The notes below the pieces were generated by a model, which did no database searches, was not told where the DNA came from, and saw only the letters and a list, made by a program, of their open reading frames with translations. Shown piece after piece: positions 6,947 through 17,222 of a stretch of 21,144 nucleotides of DNA. Both the position numbers and the translations under genes were made by a program. Numbering within the stretch: the first letter of the stretch is position 1; the number at the start of each line of letters is the position of its first letter. The DNA is from Nanobdellota archaeon (GTDB lineage Archaea > Nanobdellota > Nanobdellia > Woesearchaeales > GCA-2686295), in the NCBI GenBank assembly GCA_018819065.1, contig JAHJQL010000051.1:1-21144 (forward strand). The letters are read 5' to 3'.

Positions 6947-7019
6947 AGCCCCGTAGTGTAGCGGCCAATCATCACAGGTTCTGGCCCTGTGGACCACGGT
7001 TCGAATCCGTGCGGGGCTA
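6947..7019 (+). tRNA. tRNA-Gln (anticodon CUG), no encoded CCA, no intron
   Basis: Hand-folded cloverleaf. Acceptor agccccg/cggggct (7 bp). Anticodon stem acagg/cctgt with loop ttCTGgc. T arm cacgg-ttcgaat-ccgtg. D-loop agcggccaa. Discriminator A. A1:U72 as in archaeal tRNA-Gln. Confidence 0.9.
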
Positions 7020-7078
7020 CATTATATTTTAGTGATTTGAGGGGATAATTTTTCTTGTATTATAAAGAAATTGGGCAG
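7006..7078 (+). repeat. 73-bp direct repeat, left copy (tRNA positions 60-73 plus 59 nt downstream); attL-like
   Basis: Identical base for base to 12191-12263 (offset 5185 nt), checked by eye. Confidence 0.9.
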
Positions 7079-7147
7079 AGCCATTATCTCTTTTGTTACA
7101 TTTGCGGACAACAATCTATTTTCACGTCTATAATTCGTTGGTTCGTC

Positions 7148-7160
7148 TCCGGGTGGCATA
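7148..7160 (+). repeat. Degenerate tRNA-3'-end-like core (tccgggtggcata), preceded by a T-loop-like ggttcgtc
   Basis: Lies inside the 89-nt segment present after the left 73-bp repeat but absent after the right one. The match is weak. Confidence 0.3.
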
Positions 7161-7167
7161 AAATCGA

Positions 7168-7180
7168 AACATTTATATAT
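7168..7180 (+). promoter_or_regulatory. TATA-type promoter element aacatttatatat of the VapBC module
   Basis: The identical 13-mer also occurs at 12275-12287. It sits 46 nt before the vapB ATG here and 43 nt before the AbrB-type antitoxin ATG there. Confidence 0.5.
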
Positions 7181-7225
7181 TTACACGTATTCAACGTATT
7201 ATACATAATACACGTAGGTAATACT

Positions 7226-7447
7226 ATGGTTAGTATAACTTTATCTGTGCCTAAAGAGTTGAAGAGTGAAATGGATTTGCATCCTGAGATGAATTGGTCA
7301 GAGATAGCACGACAAGCAATCAGAAGCAAAATAAGCATTCTAAAAAGGATGGATGCATTAGTAGCTAATAGTAAACTTACTGAGAAAGATGCTTTAGAAA
7401 TCGGTAGAAAAGTAAACAGATCTTTAGCGAAAAGATTTGGTGCATAA
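7226..7447 (+). CDS. vapB: Ribbon-helix-helix (CopG/VapB-type) antitoxin
   Basis: 73 aa. The start MVSITLSVPKELKSEMD....NWSEIARQAIR is a typical archaeal RHH antitoxin N-terminus. The stop abuts the PIN gene ATG (taaATG). The track ORF start at 7055 is an artefact of the repeat. Confidence 0.75.
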   Translation: MVSITLSVPKELKSEMDLHPEMNWSEIARQAIRSKISILKRMDALVANSKLTEKDALEIGRKVNRSLAKRFGA

Positions 7448-7858
7448 ATGGATGTAGTTGTAGATGCAAACATTCTAATGTCTGCACTGATTAAAGATAG
7501 TCATACAAGAAAACTCTTAGTTCTAAGCAACAACAATTTCTATACTCCAGAATATGTTTTCGATGAAATTAACAATCATATCGATGAGTTAGAGGAAAAA
7601 TCAGGGATGCCAAAAGAACTTATAAAAGAAGTAATCAGTGAAATAATACATCTAGCAAACGTGCACATAATACCAATAACAGAACTAGAAAAACATTATG
7701 ATAAAGCAAAAAGAATTACCCCAGATAAAGACGACACATACTACTTCGCACTAGCACTAAAGAACAACTGTCCAATATGGTCAAACGATAAAAAATTAAA
7801 AACACAAAACAAGATCACAATATACAATACAACAGAAATAACAGAAAAACACACATAA
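7448..7858 (+). CDS. vapC: PIN-domain ribonuclease toxin (VapC-type)
   Basis: 136 aa. N-terminal VVVDANILMSALI (first acidic residue). Downstream DDTYYFALA and PIWSNDKKL (the last conserved Asp) fit the PIN_3-like layout. Confidence 0.8.
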   Translation: MDVVVDANILMSALIKDSHTRKLLVLSNNNFYTPEYVFDEINNHIDELEEKSGMPKELIKEVISEIIHLANVHIIPITELEKHYDKAKRITPDKDDTYYFALALKNNCPIWSNDKKLKTQNKITIYNTTEITEKHT

Positions 7859-7898
7859 ATATATTTAGGACACATGAATGTCATCAAGACGTATTAAA

Positions 7899-7913
7899 TC
7901 TGGGCGGGGGCTA
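7899..7913 (+). repeat. tRNA-3'-end-like core copy (tctgggcgggggcta)
   Basis: Lies 40 nt after the vapC stop, in the same orientation as the tRNA. Differs from tccgtgcggggcta by 2 substitutions and 1 extra g. Confidence 0.7.
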
Positions 7914-7930
7914 TCCGTATCAATATGACA

Positions 7931-7941
7931 TCCGTGGGCTA
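7931..7941 (+). repeat. Truncated core copy (tccgtgggcta)
   Basis: Matches the tRNA core with an internal 3-nt deletion, 17 nt after the previous copy. Confidence 0.45.
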
Positions 7942-8033
7942 TCGGAATGGCTCACGAATATTATTTCTCTCTCAAAAACTTAGAAATGTGACATTTTAAT
8001 AATTCTACAAAACATACCAAAGTATAGAAGTTT

Positions 8034-8044
8034 GGACAGGGCTA
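8034..8044 (+). repeat. Short core-like motif (ggacagggcta) next to the stop of the Lrp-like gene
   Basis: Positional counterpart of ggggagggcta at 10410-10420. Both close a homologous non-coding spacer of about 120-130 nt. Confidence 0.4.
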
Positions 8045-8049
8045 TCATT

Positions 8050-9000
8050 TTAGAAATATACTAGTTTTATGTATTCTCTGAATGTTATTTCTTCGTAATC
8101 CGTGATTTTGGTGATGTTTTTTATTTCATTCATTATCCTGTTTATCTCTTCTCTTGTGGAAACTTCTATATCTATTTCAAAGTCGTTTTGGGATATTGTG
8201 AAATCAATATATGTTATGAAAGGATTGTATTTGGCAAATTCTATTAATTCTCTTATTTTGATAGTCTCGCTTAGTACGATATTTATTTTATAATATTTGT
8301 ATCCTATTTTCTCCAGGTTAAGTAATGGTTTGTATCCTACTATTATGTCGTTTTTCTCTAGTTGTTTTATTCTATATGCTATAGTCTTGGCTGGCATGTT
8401 TAATTTTTTGGAAATTTCTAGAACTGATACTCTGGCATTATTAGACATTATCTTTAATATTTTGATGTCGCGTTCATCGAATTGTACTTCTGGTGATCCT
8501 CCCACTATCAGTGATTTTGGTGGTTCTGAATTTTTTTGGTTTTGTACTAAGTAGTTTCTGTCAAAATGTATGACTTTTGTGAATATCGCTATTTGTACCC
8601 TGCCCATATTTTTCTTGAATTTTTCTTTAAAATTATTCCAGAATTCATAAAATTCATAGATGGTTTTTACCCAGCACATTATTGCTAAATCATAGTTTCC
8701 TTCGAGTCTTGATAATACATGTACTTCTGTAAGTGCTATAAGATAATTATGAATTTCAGTGTCAATTTCTTGGTCTGAATTTGCCAATCGCAAATATATC
8801 CTGAAACCAAAATATCCTAATTTGGAATTATCTATTATGGTATAATATCCTTTTATGTATCCTGTATCTTCTAATTTCTTTAATCTATATTGTGCAGTAT
8901 TTTGGTTTATTCTTAATTTTTTGGCAAGATGAGATACTGGTATTCTTCCATTTTTATCTAATTCGAGAAGCATCTTTTTATCAGTCAAATCAAGATTCAT
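8050..9000 (-). CDS. Tandem-repeat Lrp/AsnC-family transcriptional regulator
   Basis: 316 aa with two wHTH units (DKKMLLELDKNGRIPVSHLAKKLRINQNTAQYRLKKLEDTGYIKGY and RDIKILKIMSNNARVSVLEISKKLNMPAKTIAYRIKQLEKNDIIVGY). Each unit is followed by an RAM-like beta-alpha segment. Confidence 0.75.
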   Translation of the reverse strand: MNLDLTDKKMLLELDKNGRIPVSHLAKKLRINQNTAQYRLKKLEDTGYIKGYYTIIDNSKLGYFGFRIYLRLANSDQEIDTEIHNYLIALTEVHVLSRLEGNYDLAIMCWVKTIYEFYEFWNNFKEKFKKNMGRVQIAIFTKVIHFDRNYLVQNQKNSEPPKSLIVGGSPEVQFDERDIKILKIMSNNARVSVLEISKKLNMPAKTIAYRIKQLEKNDIIVGYKPLLNLEKIGYKYYKINIVLSETIKIRELIEFAKYNPFITYIDFTISQNDFEIDIEVSTREEINRIMNEIKNITKITDYEEITFREYIKLVYF

Positions 9001-9144
9001 ATTGTTATAAAGATTATCTTATTTATAAAGGTTATGCTAATATAACAAATATTATGTAGAAAAGTTAATATAGTTTGTGTACGTTACTCTTTATTAGTAA
9101 TAAAACATATCATCGTTGTATGATGTTTTACTGGAGATGAAAAA

Positions 9145-9915
9145 ATGGTTTCTGCGGAATACACAGAGTTTGAAGATGTACAGAAAAAAAATAATTATAC
9201 TGATATCCAACTTGAAAAAATAGTCCTTCAACTACGAGAAGTTGTTGATGGTGACATAAGAAACTATAATGAAGGAACAAGAAGATTGATAGTTATGAGA
9301 AATTACGATGAAATAAAGTCTAAGGAAGAGTATCTTTCTAAACATGCTATATTAAAATGGATGTTTTTAGAGAAAAAGATGCAGTCTAAACACAAAGAAA
9401 TATATTCTTTTAATCAACATAGTTCTAACTATTCTGAGTTAGTGGATATAATCTGGAAAATATACGATGTGACAAAACAGAACGTAGTATCTGGAGAGAG
9501 CATATTAGATCTTAGAAAGAACTTTGAAGAAGTATATGAATCAAAACGGAATAATTTGGCGCTGGATCATGTAAGTAATTATTTGTTTCAATATCCGGAA
9601 TATGCCAAGGCAGAATTCGAAGCTCTAACTAAAAAAATAAGAAGCGAAGATGGCTCCTACGGAATATATATTGGGAAATTTTATGATTATGGAAAGTATT
9701 ATCCTGCATTGACAGAACAACTAATGAAAGAATTAGGCTCAATGTATAATAGGACATCAGAATCGGATAGAAAACGTATCTTGTCTGCAGCTACACTTGG
9801 TTTTGTGGCTAATTTTGATTCCATATGTGAATTTCGCGTTGAGCAATTAGGCGATAATTTTAACTGGACAAAAGATAAATCTTGTGCATACGCAGGTATA
9901 ATTTGTGAGGATTGA
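9145..9915 (+). CDS. Hypothetical protein (orphan, 256 aa)
   Basis: ATG with ggaga 7 nt upstream, divergent from the Lrp-like gene. No motif I recognise. Confidence 0.6.
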   Translation: MVSAEYTEFEDVQKKNNYTDIQLEKIVLQLREVVDGDIRNYNEGTRRLIVMRNYDEIKSKEEYLSKHAILKWMFLEKKMQSKHKEIYSFNQHSSNYSELVDIIWKIYDVTKQNVVSGESILDLRKNFEEVYESKRNNLALDHVSNYLFQYPEYAKAEFEALTKKIRSEDGSYGIYIGKFYDYGKYYPALTEQLMKELGSMYNRTSESDRKRILSAATLGFVANFDSICEFRVEQLGDNFNWTKDKSCAYAGIICED

Positions 9916-9919
9916 CTAA

Positions 9920-10195
9920 ATGAAGCGTCAAGTTGTTCATAACATTCATGAGGATTACTCATTATGGAAGAAGTTGATTGAGTTAGATTATTATCTTTTA
10001 GGTTTGGCTGATGATGTTTTTGTTTCTCCTGTTAAGTATTATTTTAGTTCGCATGGTTTTGGAATAATCCTGTCAAGAAATGTGTTGATAGTTTCAGGAA
10101 GTACAAAGGATAAAGTCAGAAACGAAGTCCAGAGATTAGATAAGAAGATTCGACTCAATCAAAAGAAGCTACTTCAATGCGTAAGCATGCACTAA
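9920..10195 (+). CDS. Hypothetical protein (orphan, 91 aa)
   Basis: ATG 4 nt after the upstream stop, with gagg 9 nt upstream, so it looks operonic with 9145-9915. Confidence 0.5.
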   Translation: MKRQVVHNIHEDYSLWKKLIELDYYLLGLADDVFVSPVKYYFSSHGFGIILSRNVLIVSGSTKDKVRNEVQRLDKKIRLNQKKLLQCVSMH

Positions 10196-10265
10196 TATTC
10201 GTAGCTCTGGCTAGATTTCTATAATTTGTATGATATTCTCCGAGCTAAATTTATATATGATGACG

Positions 10266-10279
10266 TCCGGGCGGGGCTA
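10266..10279 (+). repeat. tRNA-3'-end-like core copy (tccgggcggggcta, 13/14)
   Basis: Lies 70 nt after the stop of the 91-aa ORF, in direct orientation. Contains the exact 11-mer gggcggggcta. Confidence 0.8.
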
Positions 10280-10409
10280 ATAGTACTAATGTGGTTTTTG
10301 CGGACACTATTTATGCCCGTAAAAAGCCAGTTTTTCTCTCTAAGAAATAATTTCTAGAAATTTGTATTACAGATGTAATACTTCGAAATACATCAAAAGT
10401 AATGAGTTC

Positions 10410-10420
10410 GGGGAGGGCTA
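10410..10420 (+). repeat. Short core-like motif (ggggagggcta) overlapping the stop codon of the TrmB-like gene
   Basis: Counterpart of 8034-8044. The cta is the reverse complement of the TAG stop. Confidence 0.4.
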
Positions 10421-11131
10421 GTATTTTGCTGTTTTCCAGATTAATTTAAAGTAGTTTCTATATGATTTAGCAACTTCTTTGTTTTGTATAACTGTTGCTA
10501 TAGGAATTTCACTCCAAACAATTATTGCAATATTATTTTCGTAAACAAATGTTGTTGTAGGAGAGATAAATTCTTCAGGAAGATATTTAAACGTGGAATA
10601 CGCGTATTTTACGCTTTCGGATTTTTTTGCATTTTCTGAAAATATCACGTGTGCAATTATCTTTTTATCCTTCTTGGATTTTTGAAATAATAAATAATCG
10701 TGTTTCATTATATCCAAGAATTTTCCTGAAGAACCATAACATACATATTCTTTAGTTTTTAAAATATCGCAGAGTATGGATTTGATGCCTTTTTTACCTT
10801 CATATATACTTGATGTTTCGGTTTCTTTACTCGACTTGAATCGCATTTCTAGTTCAGGTAATATCTCTTTTGCAATAGTTTCTTGATCTCTTATTATCTC
10901 TAGTAATTTTGTCGGAGAAACTGCTTTGAATACTTTTCTATTGGATTGAAGAACATATGTTACAAGTCCTTTATCTAATAATCTATTGATTGAATCGTAA
11001 ACTGTTGTTCTATTAATTTTAGATTTTTTACTTATTTTTCCTGCATTAGATGCTCCTATATCTAAAAGAGTTACATATACCAATGCTTCGGTTTTATTCA
11101 ATCCTAATTTTTCCAATTTTTCTATACTCAT
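10418..11131 (-). CDS. TrmB-family transcriptional regulator
   Basis: MSIEKLEKLGLNKTEALVYVTLLDIGASNAGKISKKSKINRTTVYDSINRLLDKGLV is the canonical TrmB N-terminal wHTH. I prefer the ATG at 11131 over the GTG at 11140. Confidence 0.8.
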   Translation of the reverse strand: MSIEKLEKLGLNKTEALVYVTLLDIGASNAGKISKKSKINRTTVYDSINRLLDKGLVTYVLQSNRKVFKAVSPTKLLEIIRDQETIAKEILPELEMRFKSSKETETSSIYEGKKGIKSILCDILKTKEYVCYGSSGKFLDIMKHDYLLFQKSKKDKKIIAHVIFSENAKKSESVKYAYSTFKYLPEEFISPTTTFVYENNIAIIVWSEIPIATVIQNKEVAKSYRNYFKLIWKTAKY

Positions 11132-11253
11132 AATACCCACTAATAATGTGTCTTTTTTAAATCTATTGGATTGTTGTTAGTTTACTCACAACATAAATTA
11201 ATATAGTGGAAGAGTATTCACTTATTGAGAGTAATTATTCGGGGAGATTTAAA

Positions 11254-11925
11254 ATGTATCATATTAGAAAAGAAGCAGATCTTAAAAACAATAGAAGGGT
11301 TTTATACGTCGAAGCTCCTTTTGATAAAGCTCTTAAGATAATCAAATTGAGAGGGAGTAATATTATTACTGCGAAACAACTCGCCGATGCGCGTATGCAA
11401 TGCGATGTAAGTCATTCTTTATCAGCAAATGGCGCATATATCTCAGAAGGAATTATAGTTGATCCGTATCCAAAACACCCTAACATACTTCTAAGAGAAT
11501 CTTTAATTTTGAATAATCCACATAATGCCACAGAGTCGCATCGAAAAATTAGGAATTATAATTATTATCATGAGTCTTACGTTGTTCCTTCTACTATTGA
11601 AAGTGTATTAAATGGTTTGATCGAGGATAAAGACTATATTTTTCTTGACGATAGAATCGGAGACCATGTTATTTCCTATACTGAATTTTTTGAACACAGT
11701 AAATTAATGAATTTTTTGTTTGGTAAATCTGCTAAAGCGTACGGGATTTGGTTAAAAGAAGAAGGAAAAATCTCAAAAGTCAATATTTATAATATTACAT
11801 GTGCAAGAAGATCAGAAATAACTGCGGATCAGCTTTGGTTTAATAGACTAACAGAGAATAGTTTCTTTGGAGGAGGAAGATATCTTAATCATAGTAATAG
11901 AGTTCGTTGGATAGATACAAAATAG
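11254..11925 (+). CDS. Hypothetical protein, member of the island paralog family (C-terminal LWFNRL...GGGRYLNHSNRVRWI)
   Basis: The ATG at 11254 is preceded by ggggag 7 nt upstream (the track ORF starts at GTG 11206). Distantly collinear with 13043-13858. Confidence 0.6.
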   Translation: MYHIRKEADLKNNRRVLYVEAPFDKALKIIKLRGSNIITAKQLADARMQCDVSHSLSANGAYISEGIIVDPYPKHPNILLRESLILNNPHNATESHRKIRNYNYYHESYVVPSTIESVLNGLIEDKDYIFLDDRIGDHVISYTEFFEHSKLMNFLFGKSAKAYGIWLKEEGKISKVNIYNITCARRSEITADQLWFNRLTENSFFGGGRYLNHSNRVRWIDTK

Positions 11926-12033
11926 AAAAATCGAAGAAGATATATTGTAATATTTTAGCTTTGTCTCGATTTCAATCATAACTGTATTACAAACTCCAAG
12001 ATAATTATATTAGCAATGATAGTAAAGGATTGT

Positions 12034-12171
12034 ATGGATGAATTTGAGGCTATAATGCAAGAAAAAGAACGACTATTAAGAAAATACCACTGCAAGACAA
12101 TAAATGAAGTAATACGAATTCTACAGCTAATTCTAGCCGAAAACAATAAAAAAGCCGAAAGTCCTATGTAA
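12034..12171 (+). CDS. Possible 45-aa small protein (MDEFEAIMQEKERLLRKYHCKTINEVIRILQLILAENNKKAESPM)
   Basis: Not in the ORF track because it is short; an alternative ATG lies at 12016. Its 3' end is conserved with a decayed copy at 14320-14361. The stop is exactly 19 nt before the core repeat in both places. Confidence 0.35.
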   Translation: MDEFEAIMQEKERLLRKYHCKTINEVIRILQLILAENNKKAESPM

Positions 12172-12190
12172 GTCATATCTCCTATAGATG

Positions 12191-12263
12191 TCCGTGCGGG
12201 GCTACATTATATTTTAGTGATTTGAGGGGATAATTTTTCTTGTATTATAAAGAAATTGGGCAG
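12191..12263 (+). repeat. 73-bp direct repeat, right copy; attR-like
   Basis: Identical to 7006-7078. Upstream of it there is no T-arm or other remaining tRNA sequence. Confidence 0.9.
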
Positions 12264-12274
12264 GCTAAAACCAT

Positions 12275-12287
12275 AACATTTATATAT
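12275..12287 (+). promoter_or_regulatory. TATA-type promoter element aacatttatatat of the AbrB-RelE module
   Basis: Identical 13-mer to 7168-7180. Confidence 0.5.
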
Positions 12288-12329
12288 ACGACGTGTTTTA
12301 ATATTAAAATATATTGTAGGTGGTGCTTT

Positions 12330-12605
12330 ATGGAAGTCTCTATAACTAAAATGTCTGAAAATGGTCAAGTCGTAATACCTGCTGAAGTAAGGAAAGATGC
12401 AGGGATAGGTCCATCAACAAAATTCATCGTATTTAATCATGATGGAAACATTATGTTAAAACAGATGAAAAAAGAATCTTTAGTGAAGGATATGGAATTA
12501 ATAGATAAGATTAATCGTAGTGAAACTCAAATAAGTAGTGGCAAAGTGGTTAAAGCAAATACCAAGATGAAAAATGAAGAAATAGATGACCTTCTAATGG
12601 GATAA
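12330..12605 (+). CDS. AbrB/SpoVT (MazE-like) domain antitoxin
   Basis: 91 aa. ITKMSENGQVVIPAEVRKDAGI is a swapped-hairpin AbrB motif. aggtggtg lies upstream of the ATG. The stop is 1 nt before the toxin ATG. Confidence 0.75.
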   Translation: MEVSITKMSENGQVVIPAEVRKDAGIGPSTKFIVFNHDGNIMLKQMKKESLVKDMELIDKINRSETQISSGKVVKANTKMKNEEIDDLLMG

Positions 12606-12606
12606 A

Positions 12607-12852
12607 ATGGAAATTATTTTTTCTGAAGAATTCAAGAATGAGTTCAAGAAGATAAAGGATAAAACTACAAGAATAAAAATTATCAAACATATAAAAAAAT
12701 TAGAACAATTGCCAGAATCAGGAAAACCGTTAAAACATAATCTAAAGAATCATAGAACCACAAGAATTCCTCCATTCAGATTAATATATAGAATTGAAGG
12801 AGATAAAATAATAATAAACTGTTTTGACCACAGAAAGGATGTATACGAATAA
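12607..12852 (+). CDS. RelE/ParE-superfamily toxin
   Basis: 81 aa. The ...GKPLKHNLKNHRTTRIPPFRLIYRIEGDKIIINCFDHRKDVYE tail is typical of RelE/StbE-type toxins (R..YRI.....I.I....HR.D.Y). Confidence 0.75.
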   Translation: MEIIFSEEFKNEFKKIKDKTTRIKIIKHIKKLEQLPESGKPLKHNLKNHRTTRIPPFRLIYRIEGDKIIINCFDHRKDVYE

Positions 12853-12867
12853 TTGTCAAGGATGGTA

Positions 12868-12881
12868 TCCGGGCGGGGCTA
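12868..12881 (+). repeat. tRNA-3'-end-like core copy (tccgggcggggcta, 13/14)
   Basis: Lies 15 nt after the relE-like stop and is identical to the copy at 10266-10279. Confidence 0.8.
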
Positions 12882-13042
12882 TTATGCGTGTTCTAGATTA
12901 TCGTATGAGTGTATTTGTTCGTATAGGCTCATGTGTTTCTTGTTTTGGTGTGTGTTTTTATATTCATAACGAAAAACAAATGTTTTGTTACTAAATAGTG
13001 GTTAAATAATCGTAAAATTTATAAATAGAACACTCTTTATGC

Positions 13043-13858
13043 ATGAAAAAAGAGTTAAAACTCACCATAACGGAGGAAAATAAAATTAGCTTACAATTAA
13101 ACAATCCAGTTGCTGTTTACAAGGAATTTTATGGCAAGAACATAGATAAGATGCCTGAGCTTATAGCTTCAGGTTTTACGCCAATGACTTTTGCTGACGT
13201 GATGAAGCGCAGACTAGAAGTCTTAGGAGGCAACAAAGATGTGGCAGATGCGTGGTGGGATAATTATTTTGACACTGTCAATATTGTTGCTTATCATCCT
13301 GATGGCAGGATAAAAATAGTTCTTGACTCACAATTAGCCAAGGAAATTAATCCAAAAAGTACTGTAAGAAATGGTTCAATTGTTCTTCCAAACACTGACG
13401 CATATGAACAACTTGCAGGACAAGAATTTACACAAAAGGAAATTGAAAAGTATGCCAAATCAGAATCATTAACGCTTAAACAAGCACTAAGCAATCCAAT
13501 ATGGGCTGCATTAGCAAATGATCCAAAACTTCATGAAGAATATGCAAAAGCAACATTCAAAGAAGCCAAAGAAAAATACGGGTTCAATAATAATCTAGGC
13601 GTTTATTTGTCAGGATTCAAAGAAGTTCCTAATTTTAGGCTTTGGTTGTCGAGCAGGCTCAACTACAACTCGGATGCTGATGGTAGCAATTCTCTTGACT
13701 ACAACTATGGGCGTCTGGTCGGGGTAGCGCCGGAGGCGCACGGCGCCGAAAAAATAGCTATGCCGACACTAGAGCAGATTATGAATATCAGTTCAAAATA
13801 TGTTGCTCCAGTTAATGTTGATGCATTAAGAAAAGACCTAAAAGGCATCTACAAATAA
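13043..13858 (+). CDS. Hypothetical protein, member of the island paralog family (C-terminal RLWLSSRLNYN...NYGRLVGV)
   Basis: 271 aa. tttataaata lies about 20 nt upstream, so the transcript is probably leaderless. Paralogous to 11254-11925 and to the relic at 13944-14149. Confidence 0.65.
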   Translation: MKKELKLTITEENKISLQLNNPVAVYKEFYGKNIDKMPELIASGFTPMTFADVMKRRLEVLGGNKDVADAWWDNYFDTVNIVAYHPDGRIKIVLDSQLAKEINPKSTVRNGSIVLPNTDAYEQLAGQEFTQKEIEKYAKSESLTLKQALSNPIWAALANDPKLHEEYAKATFKEAKEKYGFNNNLGVYLSGFKEVPNFRLWLSSRLNYNSDADGSNSLDYNYGRLVGVAPEAHGAEKIAMPTLEQIMNISSKYVAPVNVDALRKDLKGIYK

Positions 13859-13907
13859 TTCTTTTTTTCAATAATTTTTTATATTAACTATTCTTTACTT
13901 ATTATTG

Positions 13908-13917
13908 TCCCGGCTTA
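13908..13917 (+). repeat. Possible badly eroded core (tcccggctta)
   Basis: Lies 50 nt after the stop of 13043-13858, where a block boundary would be expected. The match is weak. Confidence 0.2.
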
Positions 13918-13943
13918 GTGCATTACTGCAAAAAGTGCACATC

Positions 13944-14149
13944 AGATAGCTGAGATCTACACGCCATTTCACTATGGCAAGCATTTGCAGTGCCTGCTAT
14001 AAAATACAACCACGACAGAAATGAAGTGGTGGTGAAAACTATTAGGTGAAATGGCTACTCGAGGGGATTTGGTTGCTTGGCAGGCTCAACAACAACTTCA
14101 ATGCCAATGGCAACAACAACGTTGACAACAACAATGGGCGTCTTGTCGG
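13944..14149 (+). pseudogene. Decayed, internally deleted paralog of 13043-13858
   Basis: Nucleotide collinearity with the intact gene: atagct-N9-acgcca, and gtggtgg(t)gaaaactatt versus gtggtgggataattatt. The segment tttggttg..ggcaggctcaac.acaact..aatgc..atgg...atgggcgtct.gtcgg also aligns. The relic has in-frame TAA and TGA stops, a +1 frameshift and about 340 nt missing. Track ORF 14046-14255 is its 3' remnant. Confidence 0.6.
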
Positions 14150-14380
14150 AATAGATCTGCTATTTACCGGGACACTTAAAATCTTAGTAGAGCCAAATCT
14201 TTATGTCGGAAGGGATATGGCTTCCATGCAAGATTTTGGCTCCAATATTGGCTAAAAACGCAAGATTCTGCACTTCCTGGCTCCATTCTGGGTCTACTCG
14301 ACGAGAGCCACGACTAAAGAATAATTTAGAAAACCGCAAAAACGCCGACAGTCCCACATGACTCAGTTTTCGGGTTGACC

Positions 14381-14394
14381 GCTGGGCGGGGCTA
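14381..14394 (+). repeat. Distal tRNA-3'-end-like core copy (gctgggcggggcta, 11/14)
   Basis: Last copy in the window. It contains the exact 11-mer gggcggggcta, and I take it as the outer island boundary. Confidence 0.7.
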
Positions 14395-14436
14395 TATTTT
14401 CTTTTTCGTAACATGGGAAGGAATTCTTTTCTTTTT

Positions 14437-15519
14437 CTAAGCACTTAATGTGTTTCCTTTTGTGTTCTGATGATTGCTATTAAGTCCGTCAGAACCATAA
14501 CTTCTTGCTGCGTCTGAAGAAAACAAGTAGATAAGTCCTAAAGCAAAAGGCTCTCCTTTCTTAATAACATAATCTCCCCACATATATGGATGCGCAGTTA
14601 AATTGCCTTTAAAGCCGGAATCGCCCCAGCCAGCTTTTAGTCTTTGATTGAATTGCATCTTGAACATTTCTTCAAAATTAAAAGAAGATTTCATTTTGTA
14701 TGGAATACTTCTAAGAAGCAATATGCCCATGTTTTTAGGAATCTCAATATATGGGTCAAGCTTAACGACGTGATGCACATTTTGTTTTAAAATATATTCT
14801 TTGTCTAATTCATTTTTTTCAAAGACTTCATCAATAGAATATTTCATTCGCATATCAATTGTGCCAAAATTTTGTTTAGGTTTCAGGACTAAATCAGAAA
14901 CTTTGAATAAGACGTAACTCTCTAGAGTTTTTAGTTTTGGACTAATTATTCTTGCTGCATTTTTGACATCTTCAGGATTGTTAAGCACAACGCCCGAGCC
15001 ATAATCTTCTGCATAAAAAAATATTTGTGCAAACCTGTCTCTTGAGTGTAGCCTTATAGAATTAGGGTTGCTATTTGTTACATGTACAAATTGTCCATTT
15101 TCATCACTAAAAATTATTGGGCTTGTAGATATTAAACCATACTTTCCATGACCGCTCCTCAACTCAACACCCATCATGAATTCTGTTTTTATCTGTTCGT
15201 GTAAGTATATTTGTGCGTTGCAGCCAGGCATTATATCTATGTGTTGATTGTTGTTGTCTTCAAATATTTTTGTAGGCTCATAATTTTTTCCAAGTACAAG
15301 AACGCCACCTGTTTTTTTAGCCATTTCAGATGGATCAAAATATTTTACAGTTCCTATTCTCACGTCTAATGTATTTGGCTGAAACTGAACATCCTCTATT
15401 TCTTTATCAAATAATATTTTATTTTCTAATATTGCATTTCTAATATTAGTATCATTCAGAATATTATAATTCATAAAAATATGATGTTTGCTAAGTTCCA
15501 GTCCATTCAGTTTAATCAT
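14437..15519 (-). CDS. Tandem-domain dCTP deaminase/dUTPase-fold protein (long DCD-family-like)
   Basis: 360 aa. ILNDTNIRNAI..NKILFD....VQFQPNTLDVRIG is the dCTP-deaminase N-terminal pattern. There are two beta-barrel halves; the second has AGWGDSGFKGNLT (DPGF.G..T-like) and the C-terminal SYGSDG....HQNTKGNTLS tail. Confidence 0.65.
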   Translation of the reverse strand: MIKLNGLELSKHHIFMNYNILNDTNIRNAILENKILFDKEIEDVQFQPNTLDVRIGTVKYFDPSEMAKKTGGVLVLGKNYEPTKIFEDNNNQHIDIMPGCNAQIYLHEQIKTEFMMGVELRSGHGKYGLISTSPIIFSDENGQFVHVTNSNPNSIRLHSRDRFAQIFFYAEDYGSGVVLNNPEDVKNAARIISPKLKTLESYVLFKVSDLVLKPKQNFGTIDMRMKYSIDEVFEKNELDKEYILKQNVHHVVKLDPYIEIPKNMGILLLRSIPYKMKSSFNFEEMFKMQFNQRLKAGWGDSGFKGNLTAHPYMWGDYVIKKGEPFALGLIYLFSSDAARSYGSDGLNSNHQNTKGNTLSA

Positions 15520-15555
15520 TGTGTTGTGGTGAGATTTAATTTATTTTTATTTTTT

Positions 15556-16551
15556 TTATTCTAATCTTTTTACTGCCTGCGCGTATATTTCTGCTCCGTA
15601 CTTTGCTTCTTGTATTGTGAAATACGTGTTTCCGATGTCATAGGAGCCTGCTTCTTTTGTTTTCCGCAATCTTGTTATTATGGTTTCTATTGCCATGTTT
15701 TCTTTTATTAGGACATTTACTGCTTTGTCTACATCCTCGTCTGTCGTCGTTTTAGTTTTCAGCAGTGCCTTGTTTCTCTTAACGCCTAGTTTGTGGCAGG
15801 TCCATTCATATGTTTTTTTGAGTTCGTATAATCCTCTGTTTAGAGCGTTATATCTGTAAGATGGGTTGTCTTCTTTTTCGCTCCACACTTTGGAGATATG
15901 TCTTTCAACACCCCTGCTTATTCCTTCTGAGAACGACTCATATGATGTTCCATATGTGTTTACAGTTGCTTGCAGTATTCCTTTCTTGCTTAGTATGTGA
16001 TGAGTGTATTCGTGTGCTGAGATGACTATGTTGTTTGTTTTGTTTGCGTCTTTTTTTGATAGGTCGATTGTTTCTTCCAATGGTGAATATGTGCTTATGT
16101 TGTACTCTTCTTTGTGATACTCTATTATTCCTTTTGCTATCATCGTTCCTGCTATTGTTCCAAATATAGCTATAGGGTTAAAGTTTGTGATGGCGTAATA
16201 TGCTGCAGGTGTTAATATTGATGCTAATGCTGCATAAACTCCTGCGTATTTGAGGTTTGTTTTTCTGAATTGAAATATGTTGTAATAGCCTATCTCTGGT
16301 GATTCTATGTTTTGTACTTGTAAGAATTCATCTACTTCTTTTTTTATATCGACAAAAGTTTTTTGAAGCTCTTTGTTTTTTAGTTTTTTTCCAAAGTTCA
16401 GCTTTCCTTCTTCGTTGAGTCTTTTTAGTTTTTTGTATTCTTCAATCTCTTTGTTTAGTATCTCTTCGAGTATTGGGATGTTTTCCTTTTTTAGGACTTC
16501 TGATTTTAGCTTGCAGTCTTCAATTTGTTCGAGTGTTTCTTGATTTATCAT
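15556..16551 (-). CDS. Membrane-associated MA-clan (gluzincin-like) HExxH metallopeptidase-domain protein
   Basis: HEYTHH followed 24 residues later by SFSEGIS (HExxH...E, Peptidase_MA-like). N-terminal coiled coil plus hydrophobic segments (YAGVYAALASILTPAAYYAI, IAIFGTIAGTMIAKGII). I prefer the ATG at 16551 because a tttatatat TATA sits at about 16594-16602 on the minus strand (the track start is TTG 16593). Confidence 0.6.
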   Translation of the reverse strand: MINQETLEQIEDCKLKSEVLKKENIPILEEILNKEIEEYKKLKRLNEEGKLNFGKKLKNKELQKTFVDIKKEVDEFLQVQNIESPEIGYYNIFQFRKTNLKYAGVYAALASILTPAAYYAITNFNPIAIFGTIAGTMIAKGIIEYHKEEYNISTYSPLEETIDLSKKDANKTNNIVISAHEYTHHILSKKGILQATVNTYGTSYESFSEGISRGVERHISKVWSEKEDNPSYRYNALNRGLYELKKTYEWTCHKLGVKRNKALLKTKTTTDEDVDKAVNVLIKENMAIETIITRLRKTKEAGSYDIGNTYFTIQEAKYGAEIYAQAVKRLE

Positions 16552-16712
16552 TGTGTAAAAAAACTCTTTTTTGTTTGGTGTTTGTCTATTCAATATATAA
16601 ACCTTTTGTTTTTTAACTACTTATTAGTGGTTATTTAATTAGAATTGGTGTTTTTGAAACTATCAAAATACTGTTTACACAACATTAATTACTTAGAAAG
16701 CAATATTTATCT

Positions 16713-17222
16713 TTATCTTATGATTGTGATTGTATCCCTATATGACTCTAGAACCCTCTGTTGAAGGGTTTCAGCAGTTTTTTTTTCAGATGAGAGATCT
16801 GTTTTAAATAGTGCATCTAATCCTGTTTTTTCTTCTTTTGGAACTGTCACAAATTGAAATTTACGCAAATTATCTGGAAAACCCAGTCTTACGTATGCAG
16901 AGTCAAATCCGTCCTTATCTTTTTTCTGATCTTTAGTGCTAAAAACGTAACCGTCTTCTGCTTTATCAACGAGGTACACTCTCCTCCACTTATTCTCATT
17001 TAGTATGTGGGTTATTGTTGTGCCGTCTTTTTTAGCTCCTTCGTAGGTATATTTTGGAGTGATGGCTTGTTCTATTAATAAAGTCGCTGCTACTCCAGCC
17101 ATAAAATAAACTGTGTTCTTTATGAAGGTAGGTATGTATTGTCCACTAAGGGTTTTTTTTATCATGCTGGAATACTTATTGGAGTATTCATCTTCTTCTT
17201 TGTTTAATTTTTTTGTCTTCAT
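16713..17222 (-). CDS. Single-pass membrane protein, hypothetical
   Basis: 169 aa with one TM segment (VYFMAGVAATLLI) and no recognised domain. A TATA-like aaatatttaaat lies upstream on the minus strand. Confidence 0.55.
   Translation of the reverse strand: MKTKKLNKEEDEYSNKYSSMIKKTLSGQYIPTFIKNTVYFMAGVAATLLIEQAITPKYTYEGAKKDGTTITHILNENKWRRVYLVDKAEDGYVFSTKDQKKDKDGFDSAYVRLGFPDNLRKFQFVTVPKEEKTGLDALFKTDLSSEKKTAETLQQRVLESYRDTITIIR

Follow-up and report, generated by a model that had tools for sequence, protein, structure and literature searches.

Here, we examine a 73-nt direct repeat in a 21,144-nt stretch of DNA (the window) from the metagenome-assembled genome (MAG) of a Nanobdellota archaeon (contig JAHJQL010000051.1), which L10e-based searches place among the Woesearchaeota. 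Successive integrations at the 3′ end of a tRNA-Gln(CUG) gene of this DPANN lineage have probably left a tandem array of scars, with the repeat as its youngest attL/attR-type pair. This reading draws on the repeat itself, on an array of seven tRNA-Gln ends with a strict strand bias, on an arm and an AbrB-RelE toxin-antitoxin (TA) pair that are homologous to an integrase-bearing locus, and on the recurrence of such inserts at the same tRNA in relatives. An initial annotation, made from the letters alone, had described the repeat as a pair bracketing a segment with no integrase. The pair does behave as an attL/attR-type scar, but it is not isolated, being the best-preserved pair of a seven-core array that runs to 14397.

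The 73-bp repeat and the array of tRNA-Gln ends

In a repeat search of the window, the two copies of the direct repeat (7006–7078 and 12191–12263) are identical at 73/73 positions and lie 5185 nt apart, as the initial annotation had it. Both edges of both copies are sharp, and similarity ends at once outside them. Copy 1 comprises the last 14 nt of the tRNA, to the discriminator base, and a 59-nt trailer. This division, also annotated initially, follows the Rfam extent of the gene (6947–7019); ARAGORN places tRNA-Gln(CTG) at 6947–7020, for a division of 15 + 58. Only 14 of the 73 identical nucleotides are thus within the tRNA. The repeat overlaps the 3′ part of the gene and its proximal copy completes an intact tRNA-Gln, as expected of integration into a tRNA gene. 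The imperfect hairpin pointed out earlier within the repeat does exist, although shuffled sequence folds at least as well (z = +0.46). Exact searches of IMG/VR and of JGI metagenome contigs with a 23-mer of the repeat gave no match.

The tRNA end recurs well beyond the two copies. We scanned both strands of the 21 kb by Smith-Waterman alignment with the 3′-terminal 22-mer of the tRNA, at a threshold score of 22. Seven cores score ≥22, at 7006 (the tRNA itself), ~7140, ~7897, 10259, 12191, 12861 and 14374. All are on the + strand within 7006–14397; the − strand and the rest of the 21 kb have no such site, and 30 first-order shuffles yielded a mean of 0.07 sites versus the seven observed. The motif GCGGGGCTA has five exact occurrences and six matches allowing ≤1 mismatch, a number reached in 0/100 shuffles. 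Seven cores within 7.4 kb make for an unusually dense array, whose modules measure as little as ~0.1–0.7 kb. Cores other than the 73-bp pair have only ~12–15 nt in common with the tRNA end. The best-preserved inner cores, at 10259 and 12861, read CCGGGCGGGGCTA (CCGGG), and the resident tRNA reads CCGTGCGGGGCTA (CCGTG). Related Woesearchaeota (L018, L032 and L083) have CCGGG in their own tRNA-Gln allele, which fits left half-sites inherited from foreign attP sequences. We also considered a resemblance between the right edge of the 73-mer (GGGCAG|GCTA) and positions 7150–7158 within the degenerate core; it is suggestive only, and is absent from the regions upstream of AbrB in L190 and L186, two relatives described below.

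Assemblies bear out this arrangement. The window corresponds, with an offset of one base, to contig JAHJKX010000100.1 of a Nanoarchaeota MAG, and this assignment displaces the Sulfolobales origin at which the low GC content might hint. That contig and a second full-length MAG contig, JAHJPC010000128.1, are 100% identical to it, and the same 100%-identical sequence is found in further MAG assemblies, in Logan k=31 contigs of several runs and in MEGAHIT k141 contigs. Copy 1 is spanned from L10e into the VapB side by a MEGAHIT k141 contig (L006, 6268–7188) and a Logan contig (L005, 6066–7497); copy 2 is spanned from the segment into AbrB-RelE by a MAG contig (L008, from 11271) and a Logan contig (L010, 11245–16726). 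In SRR10598174, the Logan k=31 assembly is interrupted at 7035, 7049–12220 and 12234, exactly where a 73-bp repeat should split a k=31 graph. Contigs of independent assemblers span the junctions of each copy and rule out an origin of the repeat in assembly, and the mis-join or collapsed repeat that the initial annotation had entertained can be set aside. Another Logan contig (L004) ends at 7029, six bases before the expected k=31 breakpoint at 7035, which could mean a variant at 7030 within the 73-mer in that sample, or low coverage. Additionally, the Logan contigs of SRR7062488 are 100% identical to the window within 7131–9557 (L015) and 11245–16726 (L010), and the first 24 bases of L015 and the last 24 of L010 are tails that differ from it at 7130/7131 and 16726/16727. 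The left tail of L015 is a diverged version of window 7101–7130. These tails hint at a co-occurring strain with the same island and a different outside.

An integrase family and tRNA-Gln inserts in relatives

The segment between the two copies was initially described as lacking a recombinase and, as far as this can be tested, the description holds. No ORF of the segment gives a match to PF00589 or to another Pfam recombinase model, four DPANN integrases used as tblastn queries give no hit in the window, and intergenic gaps in the segment are ≤265 nt. To judge from sequence alone, the function of one ORF, p256, could still be that of a recombinase. The p256 gene diverges from that of a double Lrp/AsnC regulator, and its product is a complete ORFan, with no homologue but itself in a word search of 5.8 billion proteins and an exhaustive HMMER search of 1.84 billion representatives.

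A related locus has a tyrosine recombinase in the expected place. L190, a 243-kb ENA contig, carries an intron-containing tRNA-Gln at 58–155, then ~7 kb of small ORFs, then a 402-aa tyrosine recombinase (7169–8377, −; PF00589, 26.4 bits) in which the R, H-x-x-R and Y regions are visible. Between the integrase gene and the next core lies an arm (8573–8714) that is 77% identical to window 11983–12122, just ahead of copy 2. After the arm come a core at 8777, a small TA-like pair, a core at 9520 and an AbrB-RelE pair 86% identical at the nucleotide level to that of the window. The DNA preceding copy 2 is therefore homologous to the arm of an integrase-encoding element, in support of the attL/attR-type reading first proposed for the repeat. 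The L190 core at 9520 matches the tRNA-proximal copy at 28/29 positions. Past the core, the first and third L190 copies share trailer similarity (28/29 nt, then ~80%), and the middle copy does not.

A second trace of this element is seen at the far end of the array. Window 14150–14300 matches L190 6460–6620, past the 3′ end of the integrase gene, and window 14310–14380 matches the arm on the opposite side of that gene. Both flanks of the L190 integrase gene are thus adjacent in the window, right before the core at 14374, which fits a deleted integrase; positions 14150–14380 are a probable integrase-deletion scar. In L195, a frameshifted integrase with the same arm and core lies between housekeeping genes. 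Hence an integrase gene next to an att site, absent from the bracketed DNA of the window, is found in L190 and, as a pseudogene, in L195. The family is large (2186 members at E≤1e-5), and its named members are all Nanoarchaeota or Woesearchaeota. Neither a single sequence nor a 32-sequence profile gave a match to it in the viral contigs of IMG/VR. One further locus, L192 (9900–17900), encodes an integrase 59% identical to that of L190, among Fic and TrmB genes. On its flanks are direct repeats of 46 and 38 nt and a partial copy of the integrase in inverted orientation. This branch may use a different target. We set L192 aside as a comparison, as no tRNA is nearby.

We also followed synteny via L10e in GTDB genomes and metagenomes. 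The left flank of the window (L10e, NOG1, PAC2, endonuclease Q-like, CYTH) shows synteny with relatives, whereas to the right of the tRNA there is none. Many relatives keep L10e and tRNA-Gln side by side. Two of these loci have inserts of their own at the tRNA. In L046/L119, a HEPN-MNT TA pair (1068 nt) lies between the tRNA-Gln end and a 15-nt copy of that end, and in L040/L117 a repeat of 12 nt encloses an insert of 474 nt; no integrase is present within the fetched locus in either case. In six others (L102, L018, L036, L032, L054 and L083), the L10e-adjacent tRNA-Gln has no second copy. A native tRNA trailer conserved in relatives was sought and rejected, only a short T-rich stretch being held in common. 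The L10e-adjacent tRNA-Gln of relatives is often intron-containing (L018, L032, L036, L040, L046, L083, L102 and L190). ARAGORN missed or miscalled all of these, a Rfam scan of the eight at the gathering threshold found only that of L102, and the synteny of relatives seemed missing until blastn was used. As a practical matter, partial tRNA copies and intron-containing tRNAs are easily missed or misannotated in such MAGs.

A proposed history and its alternatives

How did the array arise? We infer integrase-mediated recombination, the order of events and the origin of the 59-nt extension as follows. Elements with a Nanoarchaeota-specific tyrosine recombinase would recombine with the last ~14 nt of tRNA-Gln. 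In each event, as in a repeated Campbell model, the tRNA would be rebuilt proximally and a partial tRNA-end copy would mark the distal junction; older inserts would be pushed downstream, with the newest adjoining the tRNA. Deletion would later remove integrase genes and most of the cargo, leaving TA pairs, regulators and fragments of diversity-generating retroelements (DGRs) between the seven cores. Toxin-antitoxin pairs, being addictive, tend to persist. In the last event, a 5.1-kb composite (7079–12190) would have been inserted as one piece, with three older cores already inside. This agrees with the initial view of a composite of VapBC and two regulator blocks with diverged cores inside; the degenerate cores are those at ~7140, ~7897 and 10259. 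The attachment region of the incoming DNA would have matched both the resident 14-nt core and the 59-nt trailer, which would be why the flanking identity is 73 bp and not ~14 bp. The responsible recombinase would have been lost afterwards or have acted in trans.

The extension by 59 nt could happen by three routes, among which we make no choice. The incoming element may have been of the same family as the resident AbrB-RelE element; an earlier excision via a neighboring core may have carried trailer DNA into the attP of the element; or the identity may have been lengthened later by conversion. The trailer similarity between the first and third copies of L190 reflects the same tendency as the extended identity in the window. 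As for age, the initial annotation called the event recent, and it does appear younger than the inner cores. However, it probably predates the split from a slightly diverged strain, known from proteins only, because the JGI contig of that strain (21,450 bp) carries both the segment and flank genes. The divergence of this strain is not limited to the segment, as variant proteins are also encoded in the flanks.

Repeated integration followed by integrase loss is a familiar process, here in a little-studied lineage. Crenarchaeal att sites span 29–69 bp, and both tandem re-use of a site and loss of the integrase after integration have been documented in archaea (PMC6563490, PMC8371274). The array resembles the tandem integrative elements with tyrosine recombinases at tRNA genes of archaea and bacteria, namely the integrated mobile genetic elements of Sulfolobales, Thermococcales, Methanococcales and Thaumarchaeota, and bacterial tRNA-linked genomic islands. 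Like them, it has a direct repeat over a tRNA 3′ end, a rebuilt tRNA, a re-used site, co-oriented partial tRNA copies, integrase loss and decay, and cargo of TA, regulator and defence type; the att length is near the 29–69 bp range (PMC6563490, PMC8371274). It differs in its DPANN host, in its unusual density, in a newest pair that brackets a composite with no integrase, and in the small share of the repeat (14/73 nt) that lies in the tRNA. Its novelty lies in the host lineage, in how densely the cores are packed, in the recurrence at the tRNA-Gln beside L10e and in the integrase family that accompanies it. DPANN goes unmentioned in a 2021 review of archaeal tyrosine recombinases, and mobile elements of this group are barely described. 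The locus and its relatives point to the L10e-adjacent tRNA-Gln as a recurrent insertion hotspot, identify an accompanying tyrosine-recombinase family, large and specific to Nanoarchaeota, and show how TA pairs and broken DGRs build up in very small genomes. The current understanding of site-specific integration is unchanged.

Several observations weigh against this history. The integrase is absent from the window and from a 28-kb version of the contig. Nor could one be tied to this MAG: among eight homologues from NCBI and Logan, those traced to an accession belong to other MAGs. An empty site would read ...GGTTCGAA + 73-mer + GCTAAAACC... and a circle junction ...CTATAGATG + 73-mer + AGCCATTATC...; no assembly of this population has an empty site, a circle junction or an alternative order, and all same-species assemblies show the occupied site. 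Present-day mobility is consequently unsupported. There is also no true before/after pair, as the relatives with an unoccupied tRNA-Gln have ≤78% L10e identity and a non-syntenic downstream region. Cores are found in L186–L188 as well, with no tRNA gene in the 6–11 kb fetched. The core at 10259 and the next ~55 nt are 80% identical to L186 560–628, and the GTTCGTCTC variant of the core at 7140 is also present in L186 (2691). At 73 bp, the att length slightly exceeds the published archaeal range. Finally, the 59-nt identity beyond the core requires incoming DNA that already matched the resident trailer, such that integration alone is insufficient.

It is possible, though we consider it unlikely, that the array is old, that no new element arrived and that the 73-bp identity is secondary. 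Two related att-plus-trailer copies, once diverged, would then have been made alike through gene conversion or homologous recombination, either inside the array or with a sister chromosome. Cores that are not neighbors can indeed have related trailers, as the tRNA-proximal and third copies of L190 illustrate, and the occupied arrangement is the same in every assembly, that of the slightly diverged strain included. Conversion needs flanking homology, yet similarity ends abruptly at both edges of the 73-mer, and the other cores, which would have been equally exposed, retain no more of the tRNA end than the ~12–15 nt noted above.

We give similarly little weight to a working cassette platform. 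In such a platform, modules with no integrase of their own (mainly TA, defence or diversification genes) would be shuffled in trans at tRNA-Gln-end cores by a lineage-specific tyrosine recombinase encoded elsewhere, a loosely integron-like scheme with the tRNA end as attI. Cores neatly enclose single TA pairs in the window, in L046 and in L190, three genomes in all, AbrB-RelE occurs in three contexts with homology limited to 12272–12856, and cores with conserved downstream sequence exist where no tRNA is seen nearby (L186). The size of the integrase family, with its 2186 hits, is also in line with this scheme, and the 24-nt contig tail in SRR7062488 suggests a co-occurring strain that diverges just left of the core at 7140. 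However, homology from promoter through stop codon is equally expected of any conserved operon, and retention of TA pairs after decay of larger elements gives the same pattern. The modules have their own promoters and mixed gene orientation, and cassette order is not polymorphic in the population. Nor is there a conserved palindromic recombination site. Post-core hairpins are significant in some copies only (L186, z = −2.8 and −3.4), and their inconsistency between copies led us to reject a universal module of core plus hairpin. If a cassette system were nonetheless at work, the 73-bp repeat would mark a recent multi-cassette insertion, by a mechanism distinct from that of integrons.

True integrons, reported in archaea in 2022 (PMC9668308), and clusters of attC sites lacking integron integrases (CALINs) share with the array an ordered set of small accessory modules, many of them TA, split by a recurring site-like sequence, and a tyrosine recombinase at one end in one relative. 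We rule them out. No IntI-type integrase lies by the array, whose head is a tRNA gene and whose recurring site is the 3′ end of that gene; the cores are not palindromic, and no attC-type imperfect palindrome is found, the 73-mer included (see its z score above). The modules, moreover, are not promoterless co-oriented cassettes. Elements with SSV-type "suicidal" integrases (PMC7253208) likewise target archaeal tRNA genes and appear to lack an intact integrase once integrated. In those, attP lies inside int, and int(N) and int(C) flank the insert (PMC7253208); here we detect neither fragment at the two copies, and the related integrase of L190 lies whole next to its att site, which does not split it. 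A split-integrase scar of this type is rejected, since tblastn and Pfam find no integrase similarity in the window, with DPANN-family integrases and Pfam models as probes. A transposon or casposon with target-site duplication is also rejected: there are no terminal inverted repeats (the repeat search found no inverted-repeat pair at 7079/12190), no transposase or casposase, and a duplication of 73 bp, not ≤15 bp.

Very improbable is the idea that the GC-rich cores are not scars at all, and that they are an intergenic signal (a processing site, terminator or protein-binding site) that resembles a tRNA end. The cores are strictly co-oriented and intergenic, strong hairpins follow some of them in L186, and a core with its trailer is conserved in both L186 and the window. 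Against this, such hairpins are inconsistent, the cores in the 21 kb are confined to accessory DNA downstream of the tRNA, the best-preserved ones equal tRNA-Gln alleles of related species base for base, and in L190 and L195 an integrase and its arm adjoin a core. Weakest of all is a mis-join or collapsed repeat, a concern only in that the source is a MAG, to which the agreement of MAG, MEGAHIT and Logan contigs and the predicted k=31 breakpoints leave next to no chance.

Modules between the cores

The features of the array are collected in the table. The 73-bp pair brackets the first three modules, namely VapBC, an Lrp regulator with two unknown ORFs, and a TrmB regulator with p239 and a small ORF; AbrB-RelE and p271, the latter with an RT-16 RNA and a template repeat, are further modules outside the pair.

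Features of the array at the tRNA-Gln gene, with window coordinates, strand and the basis of each call
Feature	Position	Strand	Basis
tRNA-Gln(CUG), intact; putative integration target, last 14 nt = core 1	6947–7020	+	ARAGORN; Rfam tRNA, 52.8 bits
Direct repeat copy 1, attL-like: tRNA 3′ end + 59-nt trailer	7006–7078	+	Spanned by L005, L006
Degenerate tRNA-end core GGTTCGTCTCCGGGTGGCA, just upstream of VapBC promoter	7140–7158	+	Smith-Waterman score 22
VapB (RHH_12) + VapC (PIN) toxin-antitoxin pair	7226–7858	+	Pfam; precomputed RHH_12
tRNA-end core AATCTGGGCGGGGGCTA, 39 nt past VapC stop codon	7897–7913	+	Smith-Waterman score 24
Module: double Lrp/AsnC regulator + p256 + p91	8050–10195	mixed	Pfam
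tRNA-end core GTCCGGGCGGGGCTA	10259–10282	+	Core scan
TrmB-family regulator (10418–11140, −) + p239 (11206–11925, +)	10418–11925	mixed	Pfam; DGR context of homologues
Arm-like region with small ORF p51, directly left of copy 2	11983–12190	+	Similarity to L190
Direct repeat copy 2, attR-like	12191–12263	+	Spanned by L008, L010
AbrB/MazE-type antitoxin + RelE/ParE toxin	12330–12852	+	Pfam
tRNA-end core ATCCGGGCGGGGCTA; block begins 9 nt past RelE stop codon	12861–12884	+	Core scan
DGR remnant without reverse transcriptase: p271 + RT-16 RNA + template repeat	13043–14153	+	Rfam RF03019; comparison of template and variable repeats
Probable integrase-deletion scar + last core (14374–14397)	14150–14397	+	L190 comparison

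In the second module, the double Lrp/AsnC gene (8050–9000, −) is followed by p256 (9145–9915, +) and p91 (9920–10195, +). With both Lrp and TrmB on the − strand, module orientation is mixed, and the TA cassettes have a conserved TATA-type upstream region of their own. The arm-like region left of copy 2 resembles window 14310–14380. The AbrB-RelE cassette (12272/12279–12856) is found at 86% nucleotide identity in two other genomic contexts, and the 90%-identity cluster of its RelE extends to other genomes. GC content at third codon positions is 0.20–0.27 in most array genes (0.33–0.34 in p91 and p271), compared with 0.31–0.40 in the housekeeping genes of the left flank. PHROGs and PADLOC scans of the unknown ORFs gave generic helix-turn-helix matches only. 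We also considered whether three proteins of ~250 aa are paralogues; BLASTP similarity is not significant, and two of them, p239 and p271, are variable-protein types of DGRs.

The last module is a DGR remnant. The variable repeat (VR) of p271 lies at 13641–13726 (RLNYNSDADGSNSLDYNYGRLVGV), the RT-16 RNA at 13907–14063 (RF03019, 76.6 bits), and an adenine-rich template repeat (TR), encoding RLNNNFNANGNNNVDNNNGRLVGI, at 14068–14153. TR and VR differ at 11/28 A sites and at 13/62 non-A sites, and a Pfam scan of the ORFs detects no reverse transcriptase (RT) in the window. Judged by these features, the remnant is probably inactive. The orphan p239 seems related to the same kind of system. It has only six homologues among 5.8 billion proteins, and in the cases examined the homologue comes first of the two variable proteins of a complete DGR (L097, 10001–12997; L099, 1516–4554). 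These DGRs run in the order target, target, RT-16 RNA, TR, RT, with a small tyrosine recombinase just upstream. The window shares with DGRs of DPANN and the candidate phyla radiation the p239 and p271 protein types and an RT-16 RNA and adenine-rich TR, in the arrangement of L097 and L099. It differs from them in having no RT, in its many non-adenine mismatches and in the separation of its two targets, p239 and p271, by the inserted AbrB-RelE cassette. The DGR remnant is a broken passenger of the array, not the cause of the repeat.

Right after the last core, on the − strand (14437–16593), are genes for a 360-aa dCTP-deaminase-like protein (PF22769, 42.7 bits) and a 345-aa protein with no family assignment. 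The former gives no PADLOC hit and, going by its domain match, may be a nucleotide-depletion defence gene. In the JGI strain (proteins P0009, P0013, P0014, P0016 and P0040), this dCTP-deaminase-like protein is shortened, VapB is truncated, the Lrp regulator is split in two, and the stop codon of p256 is read through. These variants suggest either ongoing pseudogenisation of the island genes or sequencing errors in that contig.

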